From the sequence record PV018828: 64,000 nt of DNA, one strand, 5' to 3'. The notes under the pieces are model-generated. The model was not told where the DNA came from and made no database searches. It worked only from the letters and a program-made list of their open reading frames with translations. Source of the DNA: Escherichia phage YW01. Position numbers and translations under genes: made by a program. Below are positions 55,461 through 57,570 of the stretch, piece after piece. How positions within the stretch are numbered: position 1 is the first letter of the stretch; every line of letters begins with the position of its first letter.

Positions 55461-57491
55461 TTAACCTCTATTCAATGAACATTTAGGAGAATTACAATAA
55501 ACTTGATTCATAGAACCAAGCGTACAACTTTCAGCATCGCGCCACGGAATCTGCTTAAAACACTCTGAGCAGTACCCGAGGGTCGACCACATTGCTTTGG
55601 TGAAGTCAGTGCTTCGATTTCCATCAAAGCTGACGACAGTTTTGCGGAGAGCTGTTCGTGATTCAGGAAACACACCTGCTTTCTCAGCAGGTTCCTCCTT
55701 TTTTGGCTTAGTTGAGATTGCAAAAATACTGTTGCTACGTTTCTCAACATAAGCATCAACAACATCCTCCAGAGTGATGCCTGTCTGTTTCGCTGAGGAA
55801 GGTGATACAGTCATACGACCGATCATTTCTTCAGTTACACGTAAAGCAAACTCAGGACGACGGGCGTTTGTTGTATCTGTTGCTTTAATCCATACATAAC
55901 CATCTTTGATCGTAGCATTAGATACTTTCTTCTTTACTTCTACAGCGCAGACTTTACAGATATCTTCACCACGAAGACGACTAAGTTCGTCATCGAACTC
56001 ATTCTCTGTTTTAACTTCACCGCAGATTTCACAAACACCAATAGGAGTTTCCTCCTCTTCTTCCTCTTTAGGTTTAGTCAAACCTTCCAGACATTCAGGA
56101 TGCCAATAGCACTGATATGCGAAGACTGCTTTAGGTGCATCCTTCCAATCAATGTGCTTATCACAACCACCACAATCACCATGAGAGTGTGCTTCCCAGA
56201 ATTTACGAGTGATAGTAACACCATTCTTGTTGACGAAACTATCATTCATATCAAAAGGGATATCATTATCGAAGTCAGCAGTAGTTGACTCAGGCTCCTT
56301 TTTCTCCAGAGATGGGTCAACAAAACGACCTGCTGTGATCACTAAACGGACCATAGCATTGACTTCGGAGATGCAAGATACTGTCCCACGGTAAACAATT
56401 TTAGGGTCTTTCAGGGCATCCTGATAAGCCTTAATGTCTACGTTATGAACATCACCTTCAATGTACTCTTGAGACTTCTCATCGTAGATATAACCAATCA
56501 TCTTACCACGAGAAGGAACAGCACCAGCAGTTGCATAAGGAACAAACTCATGCGGAGTGATTTCCACAGTCATATCGCGGCGAATATCAATGTTTCGATC
56601 GCTTGCGATTTTGTTTTGACTTACCACTGCGTTTCTTCGACGAACGTCTGCCGCTGTCACTCCCGGCTTCGTGTCGTAAGGATTGCTTGTATTGCTTTTT
56701 GAGGAACTTTGATAGTTGCTTTGGCTGTAGTTGTTCGAGTAGTAACTGGCCCAACGATTGACTACCGTAAAAACCGGAAGCTCGTGGGCGACCTCTTCAA
56801 CCAGTGTCATGCTGTTGTTTGACATGTCAAAGATATACTCTGTACCAACTTTGCATTCAAAATGCTCATCAATACGGTTCTTGTGAGATCTAGAACGCTT
56901 CAGAATCCACATCAACATATCTTCTTCAGAAGCACCAAACCAATCTCGGTTACAACGTGCGAGGTGGAATGGACGCTCTTCGTTACGGATGATATGAAGA
57001 CGGTTATCAGAAGCATCATGCCAGATTAAGGTGAAAGCACCATCCAGCTTTTGAATAGTCTCTGCTGCACCAATAGTGTTAATAGAGTGGCAGATGTTCT
57101 CACTGTCTACCTCGAAGTTTTTGCTGTCAGGTAACAGATCTTGGTCCATCAAGGTTCCGTTATGAACCAGAGTGATGTTACCATGTTGGAAAGGATGGGC
57201 GTTCTTGGCGTTAACTGCACCTTTCGTTGCATGACGGCTGTGACCAACAATCCATGAAGGCGCTACAGTGTAAGATGTTTCACCAGTGGTGTGCTTCTTG
57301 TACTCATCTTGTAGGATGAATGCGAAAGAAGGAAGAGCTTCTTTATAAGTGAAGACTTCCTTAGTGCTTTTACGCTGACCAAAGATACCAGAGGAGTGTT
57401 GCCCTCGGAACACTCCAGCATAAAAGAGTTGGTTAAATACGTCTAAATCAGTGCTTGACAGATTACCGCCAGCTAATACGATGCCACAAAT
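55461..57491 (-). CDS. Class-II (Ntn-hydrolase) glutamine amidotransferase domain fused to C-terminal zinc-ribbon region; probable AUU start
   Basis: GATase-II core (FRGQHSSGIF, WIVGHSRHATKG...NAHPF, LVHNGTLMDQDL); in-frame codons upstream of the track GTG start read TAG-AAA-ATT-TGT-GGC-ATC-GTA (stop, K, I, C-G-I-V), matching the canonical M-C-G-I-V N-terminus if ATT 57489-57491 initiates; SD AGGTGG 8 nt upstream. Confidence 0.7.
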   Translation of the reverse strand: MCGIVLAGGNLSSTDLDVFNQLFYAGVFRGQHSSGIFGQRKSTKEVFTYKEALPSFAFILQDEYKKHTTGETSYTVAPSWIVGHSRHATKGAVNAKNAHPFQHGNITLVHNGTLMDQDLLPDSKNFEVDSENICHSINTIGAAETIQKLDGAFTLIWHDASDNRLHIIRNEERPFHLARCNRDWFGASEEDMLMWILKRSRSHKNRIDEHFECKVGTEYIFDMSNNSMTLVEEVAHELPVFTVVNRWASYYSNNYSQSNYQSSSKSNTSNPYDTKPGVTAADVRRRNAVVSQNKIASDRNIDIRRDMTVEITPHEFVPYATAGAVPSRGKMIGYIYDEKSQEYIEGDVHNVDIKAYQDALKDPKIVYRGTVSCISEVNAMVRLVITAGRFVDPSLEKKEPESTTADFDNDIPFDMNDSFVNKNGVTITRKFWEAHSHGDCGGCDKHIDWKDAPKAVFAYQCYWHPECLEGLTKPKEEEEEETPIGVCEICGEVKTENEFDDELSRLRGEDICKVCAVEVKKKVSNATIKDGYVWIKATDTTNARRPEFALRVTEEMIGRMTVSPSSAKQTGITLEDVVDAYVEKRSNSIFAISTKPKKEEPAEKAGVFPESRTALRKTVVSFDGNRSTDFTKAMWSTLGYCSECFKQIPWRDAESCTLGSMNQVYCNSPKCSLNRG

Positions 57492-57570
57492 TTTCTAATC
57501 CACCTGAAGGGTAAACCCTTTCATCTAATTAACCTTTAAATTGTGCCCCTTTGTCAGAGGCGCCCATTGA

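Follow-up and report, generated by a model that had tools for sequence, protein, structure and literature searches.

The DNA considered here, a stretch of 64,000 nucleotides from Escherichia phage YW01 (sequence record PV018828) that we refer to as the window, derives from a phiEco32-like podophage (Kuravirus) and carries, on its minus strand, the gene of a class-II glutamine amidotransferase of the N-terminal nucleophile (Ntn) type. Across the amidotransferase region the window is 98% identical to EU330206. The start region of the gene reads, 5' to 3' on the minus strand, ATG AAA GGG TTT ACC CTT CAG GTG GAT TAG AAA ATT TGT GGC ATC GTA TTA GCT GGC GGT. The frame of the enzyme passes through TAG (57497-57495), AAA (57494-57492), ATT (57491-57489) and TGT (57488-57486), that is stop, K and I followed by C-G-I-V-L-A-G-G, and no in-frame ATG, GTG or TTG occurs between the TAG and the Cys codon in the window leader. 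Judging from this layout and from the relatives of the gene, the AUU codon is very probably the initiator.

A preliminary description of this DNA had proposed AUU initiation from the string TAG-AAA-ATT-TGT-GGC-ATC-GTA, with AGGTGG lying 8 nt 5' of ATT and with ATT as the sole candidate codon between stop and Cys, and each of these elements was found as described, on the minus strand. It had also pointed out that a program-made list of open reading frames (ORFs) starts the gene further downstream, at a GTG, and this start indeed yields a 650-aa product from which the Cys nucleophile is lost. Two features can be added to that description: a 9-codon mini-ORF in frame with the enzyme, and a 5-bp hairpin located directly 5' of the Shine-Dalgarno (SD) sequence. 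The features of the locus are summarised in Table 1.

Conservation and coding constraint

Evidence that translation begins upstream from the GTG comes from the 25 codons (codons 2-26) that separate ATT from it. In an alignment of seven genomes from three genera, the variable columns in these codons are distributed 6/4/19 over codon positions 1/2/3, a bias also seen in the rest of the gene (28/16/85), and the amino acid sequence is conserved over the three genera. This bias of variation towards third positions argues that the codons are translated. The SD sequence preceding ATT is predicted to form a duplex of -5.9 kcal/mol with the 3' end of 16S RNA, whereas the GTG lacks an SD sequence (duplex +2.2 kcal/mol).

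The leader itself is exceptionally constant. Overall, 43% of the alignment columns are variable, and the longest invariant run extends over 55 columns, the next longest over 14; no variable columns occur among the 47 of the leader, compared with 23 of 73 immediately upstream. The invariant block spans the ribosome binding site of the mini-ORF, the mini-ORF, hairpin, SD sequence, spacer and ATT, together with five bases beyond (TGT GG). The 70 nt around the start are present, at an identity of at least 95%, in about 96 independent GenBank phage records, which excludes the sequencing error that had been considered earlier as an alternative source of the upstream TAG. A query in which ATT was changed to ATG retrieved no records at an identity of at least 99% (best 98.6%), while the native query retrieved 67, and among the ~96 genomes no ATG revertant was found, though a single base change would suffice. 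This pattern points to purifying selection on the ATT itself.

The encoded enzyme

The first ~200 residues of the protein constitute a class-II (Ntn) amidotransferase domain, matching Pfam GATase_6 with 55 bits against a cutoff of 27 (E = 1.1e-14) and GATase_7 with 27.4 bits against 25. A search of the PDB with the single amidotransferase sequence yielded nothing, and a family profile of 16 members was needed for the alignment. In this profile the Cys at position 1 aligns with the first residue of mature E. coli GlmS (1xff), of E. coli PurF (1ecb) and of B. subtilis PurF (1ao0), in agreement with the earlier identification of C-G-I-V as a class-II amidotransferase N-terminus; the chains of 1ao0 and 1gph begin at Cys, and in the NCBIfam GlmS model the phage Cys falls on position 2. 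C1, G2, R28-G29, H83-x-R85-x-A87-T88, N110-G111 and D128 are invariant in the 16 family members, and the family motifs align with RG, HTRWAT, HNG and D of GlmS, being the equivalents of Arg26, Arg73/Thr76, Asn98-Gly99 and Asp123. We infer that the Cys is truly N-terminal, such that the mature enzyme would begin with it. Read from ATT, the coding sequence comprises 676 codons and specifies a protein of 76.2 kDa including Met1.

With GlmS, PurF and AsnB the phage protein has in common the M-C-G-I-V N-terminus, a Cys1 nucleophile exposed after Met removal, and the residues of the glutamine site. Unlike them, it shares only the glutaminase domain of ~200 aa and lacks the SIS, phosphoribosyltransferase (PRTase) and synthetase domains. 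An identity as GlmS was rejected because the NCBIfam models TIGR01135 and NF001484 scored only 35.8 bits against 418 and 42 against 381, respectively, with matches confined to residues 1-196, and no SIS domains were detected by Pfam; the product name GlmS carried by many GenBank records is a mis-annotation. The C-terminal ~430 aa (window 55461-56200, minus strand) yielded no Pfam or NCBIfam domain. This part contains an acidic linker, KPKEEEEEE, and four CxxC motifs at aa 440, 487, 512 and 641 (window 56174-56163, 56033-56022, 55958-55947 and 55571-55560), which suggest zinc-ribbon-like modules.

The gene also differs from those of GlmS, PurF and AsnB in its surroundings. Adjoining it on the upstream side are genes for an Amidoligase_2 protein and for a COOH-NH2 ligase of the phiEco32 type, and on the downstream side lies one for an ATP-grasp enzyme. 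For this amidoligase/amidotransferase cluster a function in cell-wall or protein modification has been proposed by Iyer et al. 2009, as cited in PMC10580990.

The codon preceding Cys across the family

The preliminary description had suggested that homologs might carry ATG at the equivalent position, and this proved to be so: outside the phiEco32 and BUCT695 groups, ATG directly precedes the Cys codon in 15 of the 15 relatives sampled initially, comprising five divergent IMG/VR relatives and ten GenBank phages of other genera and families (Privateer, A24, PKM.Hi.22.6, SE131, LAh_9, PJNS034, RIO-1, Phriendly, PaP3 and Laroye). A wider survey retrieved family members by their HNG peptide motif which, being distant from the start, leaves the retrieval unbiased with respect to start codon. 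Once near-identical leaders had been merged, 63 distinct ones (given L numbers) were left, with ATG before the Cys in 48, ATT in 10, GTG in three and TTG in two. No ordinary sense codon occurs at this position among the 63, which counts against an Ile codon inside a longer protein, since other sense codons would then be predicted there. Moreover, eight of the ten ATT leaders contain no canonical start codon (ATG, GTG or TTG) in frame after the last stop and before the Cys. AUU initiation is thus supported by the canonical starts that occupy the same position in homologs without ATT, by the coding constraint and by the SD sequence.

The nearest relatives of the phiEco32 group, L015 and L016 (64-65% identity), carry ATG. 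The Aeromonas phage BUCT695 (Grimontviridae), the protein of which is 52% identical to that of the window and sister to the ATG-bearing Cronobacter A24, carries ATT together with a 55-nt leader nearly identical to that of the window, with the mini-ORF retained. For the pair L090 (ATT) and L085 (ATG), with 96.8% protein identity, homology stops exactly at the start codon and the upstream sequences are unrelated, which argues that leaders are exchanged as cassettes. L122 (ATT) and L084 (TTG) have similar leaders.

Some relatives were recovered from "bacterial genome" assemblies, but their setting suggests contaminating phage DNA, or phage contigs that had been binned with a bacterium, and not genes of the host; L118 and L119 are very small scaffolds (771 and 624 bp) assigned to Herbiconiux daphne, and L120 and L122 are contigs of phage size (44-50 kb) from metagenome-assembled genomes. 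The closer relatives in this set (34-60% identity) comprise three with ATT and one each with GTG, TTG and ATG, such that non-ATG starts are in the majority.

In BUCT695 (L008) an unannotated insert of 210 nt (2805-3010) lies between the amidoligase-like gene and the leader, with coding sequence for a short peptide of the CWxW type and for a truncated helix-turn-helix (HTH) fragment of the XRE type (Pfam HTH_3, E = 3e-7). An intact, 73-aa version of this HTH gene occupies positions 1-228 of L119, where it is in the amidotransferase frame and extends up to TAG-TAA-ATT. The motif TTTAAATGTAAA occurs in BUCT695, Privateer, A24, SE131, L015 and L016, at a site between a GC hairpin and the SD sequence.

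Table 1. Features of the amidotransferase start region and gene in the window
Feature	Position	Strand	Remarks
Class-II (Ntn) glutamine amidotransferase coding sequence, ATT to stop codon	55461..57491	-	Pfam GATase_6; same extent as phiEco32 phi32_83
GTG picked by the program-made ORF list (650-aa ORF)	57411..57413	-	codon 27 (Val) of the protein; rejected as start
55-nt invariant block	57484..57538	-	no variation across Kuravirus, Suseptimavirus and Nieuwekanaalvirus
TGT, catalytic Cys1 codon (Ntn nucleophile after Met removal)	57486..57488	-	profile alignment to GlmS and PurF
ATT, proposed AUU initiation codon	57489..57491	-	takes the ATG position of homologs; invariant in ~96 genomes; annotated start in EU330206
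A-rich 8-nt spacer ATTAGAAA	57492..57499	-	includes in-frame TAG (57497-57495), one codon 5' of ATT, closing the mini-ORF
Shine-Dalgarno sequence AGGTGG	57500..57505	-	8 nt 5' of ATT; AGGCGG in BUCT695, AGGAGG in L046
Mini-ORF MKGFTLQVD*, 9 codons, ATG start	57495..57524	-	same frame as amidotransferase; ends at TAG
5-bp hairpin AAGGG-TTTA-CCCTT	57507..57520	-	ends 1 nt 5' of the SD sequence
TTTAAAGGTTAA, at the site of the TTTAAATGTAAA-type motif	57529..57540	-	motif at ~3003-3016 in L008; upstream of ATG in L015-L017 and L025-L028
GC-rich stem-loop, 5' boundary of the intergenic region	57543..57563	-	3' of the amidoligase stop TAA 57573-57571

Architecture of the ATT leaders

The ATT leaders show a recurrent layout of hairpin, SD sequence, A-rich spacer and ATT (Table 2), in which the hairpin occupies an equivalent site though many of the stems are unrelated in sequence. 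A perfectly paired stem of 5 bp or more, with its end 9-22 nt upstream from the start, was present in seven of the ten ATT leaders, including the AT-only and doubtful case of L086, as against one of the 48 ATG leaders (Fisher p = 3e-6). The spacer, of 7-8 nt in the ATT leaders, has an A fraction of 0.55 compared with 0.40 in the ATG leaders (p = 9e-4). L046 came from a pattern scan of metagenomes that gave 21 matches, of which 14 were by chance (with stops soon after "CGIV"), and it was left out of the statistics because the scan pattern fixed its spacer. A nearby in-frame stop was tried as a further hallmark of ATT leaders and rejected, the median distance being 5-6 codons in both groups (p = 0.52). 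The recurrent layout, with ATT in ~16% of the leader types, appears to be new, and no description of this family pattern was found in the literature.

Table 2. Layout of ATT leaders, 5' to 3'; nucleotides between stem and SD sequence are given with the SD sequence
Leader	Stem arms	SD sequence	Spacer	Start	Remarks
Window	AAGGG/CCCTT	C - AGGTGG	ATTAGAAA	ATT	
L046	CCTGA/TCAGG	C - AGGAGG	ATTAGAAA	ATT	
L119	AAGGGA/TCCCTT	GGAGAGG	ATTAGTAA	ATT	hairpin with one extra A-T pair relative to the window
L069	AGACTAA/TTAGTCT	AGGAG	ATGAGAAA	ATT	
L077	ACTTAC/GTAAGT	GAGGAG	ATGAGAAA	ATT	
L073	CCTAGA/TCTAGG	GGAGGA	TAGTAAT	ATT	
L080	GACTC/GAGTC	T - GGAGGA	TAGTCAA	ATT	

Upstream from these elements, the GC-rich stem-loop of the intergenic region (-10 to -13.9 kcal/mol, z -1.9 to -3.9) shows compensatory changes between genera, its arms being GUGCCUCU/AGGGGCAC in phiEco32, GCGCUCU/AGGGCGC in SU7 and GUGCCUC/GGGGCAC in KBNP1711; the window copy has a C-A mismatch within the stem. 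Although labelled a terminator in some GenBank records, it is not a canonical intrinsic terminator because it lacks a U-tract. Scans of the intergenic region on the strand of the gene for a consensus sigma-70 promoter or an intrinsic terminator revealed nothing relevant, comparison of the leader with Rfam at permissive E-values gave sub-threshold chance matches only, and no second copy of the leader was found elsewhere in the window. The start region also contains two out-of-frame triplets within 57484-57491 (minus strand, ATTTGTGG), a TTG (+2) and a GTG (+4), located 10 and 12 nt from the SD sequence, which could compete with a weak AUU; if used, they would yield an 8-codon product, LWHRISWR*, and a 4-codon product, VASY*, respectively.

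Existing annotation and proteomics

A coding sequence of 2031 nt starting at ATT is already annotated in the GenBank/RefSeq records of phiEco32 (phi32_83, ABY52884.1, 2008), as SU10_085, and in the BASEL phages Bas90 and Bas92, and Bas90-94 as a group have the start placed at ATT, so the AUU call is not new for the phiEco32 gene. No paper discussing the ATT start was found in the literature covered, which did not extend to the original phiEco32 paper. Many other GenBank records shorten the protein by 9 to about 80 residues, with loss of the nucleophile; the truncation amounts to 9 codons in SU7 and ECBP2, 10 in BUCT695, 43 in KBNP1711 and 56 in EP335. The usual name in the records is "L-glutamine-D-fructose-6-phosphate aminotransferase" and, in ECBP2 and KBNP1711, it is attached to the neighbouring amidoligase gene. 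To our knowledge, AUU starts are never proposed by gene callers.

The amidotransferase was detected by mass spectrometry in SU10 infection, with nine peptides, and Table 2 of that study lists 63.8 kDa as expected and 63.7 kDa as identified (PMC4281155). The deposited coding sequence corresponds to 76.2 kDa, whereas an ORF from Met115 (window 57149, minus strand) gives 63.7 kDa, matching the SU10 table; the database used for the SU10 proteomics differed from the deposited annotation.

Probable initiation at AUU and comparison with known AUU systems

In the mechanism that we favour, the 30S subunit would be placed by the AGGUGG SD sequence, 8 nt 5' of AUU, and the AUU would be read by initiator fMet-tRNA with a third-position mismatch. 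Deformylase and methionine aminopeptidase would then remove the fMet and expose Cys1 as the Ntn nucleophile. A leader of this kind, resembling that of infC in its strong SD sequence, A-rich spacer of 7-8 nt with an upstream stop, and AUU, would be expected to limit output and to render it sensitive to initiation factor 3 (IF3) and to the ribosome pool. Part of the initiating ribosomes may plausibly derive from termination and re-initiation at the mini-ORF, the UAG of which lies 3 nt before AUU. The hairpin and the mini-ORF may each contribute to initiation.

Only two AUU starts are known in E. coli, those of infC and pcnB, and non-canonical triplets account for 0.004-0.024% of annotated starts (PMC5499595). 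IF3 specifically rejects AUU, and AUU reporters are expressed at levels 6-8-fold below AUG; re-initiation accounts for about half of the initiation events in the infC arrangement and is also lowered by over-production of IF3 (PMC5499595, PMC3592434, PMC2268962). By analogy, AUU at the phage leader may be under IF3 control and linked to translational regulation.

The E. coli thrS-infC junction reads T-GGAGGA-ATAAGGT-ATT, with the thrS stop 3 nt 5' of ATT. It resembles the phage leader in the spacing of the SD sequence (GGAGGA at 7 nt, AGGTGG at 8 nt in the phage) and in the stop located 3 nt before AUU (UAA GGU AUU versus UAG AAA AUU); in both, AUU is conserved in orthologs, and the phage leader offers no other in-frame canonical start. 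There are also differences. The phage gene specifies an enzyme instead of IF3, such that an autoregulatory loop is not obvious, and the small SD-adjacent hairpin present in most of the phage ATT leaders is not seen at infC. Moreover, the phage homologs alternate between ATT and ATG whereas infC carries AUU or AUC in all bacteria (PMC5499595). The gene for poly(A) polymerase, pcnB, provides a precedent for an AUU-initiated enzyme gene, with AUU limiting an enzyme of which an excess could do harm (Binns & Masters 2002, cited by PMC3592434 and PMC5499595). It differs in being a single host gene, while the phage feature recurs within a family and has a recognisable leader. Nivinskas et al. are said to have found, in 1992, that gene 26* of phage T4 uses an internal AUU start in E. 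coli. That start is internal and gives a second, shorter product, whereas the AUU of the phage amidotransferase would be the sole start, fixed by enzyme chemistry.

Alternative explanations

A start at the GTG or at a later ATG would leave the protein without its nucleophile and the CGIV stretch as an untranslated relic, and would exclude an N-terminal peptide CGIVLAGGNLSSTDLDVFNQLFYAGVFR. The program-made ORF list and several GenBank records favour such a start, and the 63.8 kDa reported for SU10 fits Met115. That figure is, however, the expected mass of a database ORF and no measurement of an N-terminus, and the reading is hardly credible given the third-position variation and conserved amino acids of codons 2-26, the absence of an SD sequence at the GTG, and the loss of the invariant C1, G2, R28 and G29 that it would entail. 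A different route to an N-terminal Cys is suggested by the mini-ORF, with its ATG in the reading frame of the enzyme: read-through of its UAG would generate a 12-residue propeptide, MKGFTLQVD-x-KI, to be removed autocatalytically. Propeptide removal is known in the Ntn family, and B. subtilis PurF loses an 11-residue propeptide to expose its Cys. The phage enzyme, unlike PurF, would need UAG read-through, and the window carries no tRNA genes, and hence no suppressor tRNA, and suppression of UAG is inefficient in wild E. coli hosts. Furthermore, L119 has TAG TAA and lacks an ATG, in L046 a TAA is followed by a TAG in frame, eight of the ten ATT leaders have no in-frame canonical start upstream, the ATG relatives all begin with M-C and have no propeptide, and the SD sequence is correctly spaced for ATT; read-through is very improbable. 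It is also unlikely, if less so, that the block is maintained for some other reason, as a DNA signal such as a promoter for a phage sigma factor or as a result of recent horizontal spread, with ATT a merely tolerated weak start. The motif TTTAAATGTAAA of the relatives resembles the gp36-sigma motif of phiEco32, tAATGTATAtA, a sequence located 6-8 nt 5' of transcription start sites (PMC4281155). Were the BUCT695 copy to act in this way, the mRNA would begin at the mini-ORF AUG or close to it. The window has TTTAAAGGTTAA instead, with two mismatches in the AATGTA core, and the SU10 promoter and terminator listing has no entry at the amidotransferase leader; the window motif is probably not a promoter. 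Horizontal spread would account for a leader common to lineages with 52% protein identity and for the L090/L085 break at the start codon, but not for zero substitutions over three genera in which the flanks differ by ~20%, and ATT recurs with unrelated leaders and stems, with the ~96 genomes yielding no reversion to ATG.

AUU initiation is also accepted in a reading that concerns the arrival of ribosomes rather than the start site: they may come mainly by coupling, through translation of the mini-ORF (or of the upstream gene in L119), termination at UAG and re-initiation, with de novo 30S binding minor. We consider this possible, though on balance somewhat doubtful. Pointing towards it, the mini-ORF and its weak ribosome binding site (AAAGG, ~8 nt upstream, -3.4 kcal/mol) lie inside the invariant block, and BUCT695 retains the mini-ORF. 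The 73-codon XRE-HTH gene of L119 runs in the same frame through hairpin and SD sequence to the TAG-TAA abutting ATT, with homology between its tail and the mini-ORF. The infC junction, with thrS-UAA-GGU-AUU, owes about half of its expression to re-initiation, and a hairpin set before the SD sequence failed to block re-initiation (PMC3592434). An ORF ends 0-1 codon before ATT in the window, BUCT695 and L119, but not in L046, which has the same SD position, spacer and ATT and no ORF across the hairpin, the TAA of its upstream gene lying 5' of the hairpin. Against coupling, too, L119 has CTG at the position of the mini-ORF ATG, the nearest in-frame stop is 10-17 codons away in L073, L080 and L120 and stops are no closer overall than in ATG leaders, and pure re-initiation would not need a strong SD sequence at ideal spacing.

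Several points weigh against our interpretation of AUU initiation. The SD duplex of the ATT leaders is on average stronger than that of the ATG leaders (-8.0 versus -6.9 kcal/mol) only marginally (p = 0.06), and that of the window is no stronger than the ATG average. The leader comparisons assume independence, while identical spacers recur among some of the ATT leaders and the hairpins of L057 and L119 belong to one family, and independent ATT origins may number only 3-6. A neighbour-joining tree of the family, which is weak at depth, implies at least eight changes of start-codon state, with ATT scattered and occurring in non-sister lineages. The leader hairpins are small and thermodynamically unexceptional (z about 0), and the proposal that the hairpin keeps SD sequence and start single-stranded was rejected, as predicted unpaired probabilities are no different in ATT and ATG leaders. 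The phiEco32 fold includes a long-range pairing and an alternative SD-sequestering helix, neither of which is conserved in BUCT695 or L046. Finally, the SU10 search database began at Met115, so that residues 1-114 were missing and the proteomics are uninformative on the start.

Implications for the phage family

As a finding for the phiEco32 gene the AUU start is modest, and the wider family pattern is the more valuable. As the Cys must be residue 1, enzyme chemistry fixes the position of the start and the start codon can be read without ambiguity, so that the family constitutes a natural experiment in start-codon choice, in which ATT (10 of 63 leader types) outnumbers GTG and TTG together. 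In practical terms, truncations in GenBank delete the nucleophile and the GlmS name is wrong. Natural AUU leaders in a culturable E. coli phage render IF3 discrimination, re-initiation and the role of an SD-adjacent hairpin directly testable.

We tentatively suggest, while considering it rather less probable than its negation, that phage amidoligase-associated Ntn amidotransferases repeatedly recruit and horizontally exchange an infC-like "AUU initiation cassette", consisting of a 5-7 bp hairpin, a strong SD sequence, a 7-8 nt A-rich spacer and AUU, in which the hairpin is functional and AUU is selected to tie synthesis to the host IF3-to-ribosome status. If so, the hairpin would act in AUU selection, for instance through stacking on the SD helix or through a downstream bias imposed on re-initiating ribosomes, and the cassette would constitute a built-in sensor or timer of the translational state of the infected cell.

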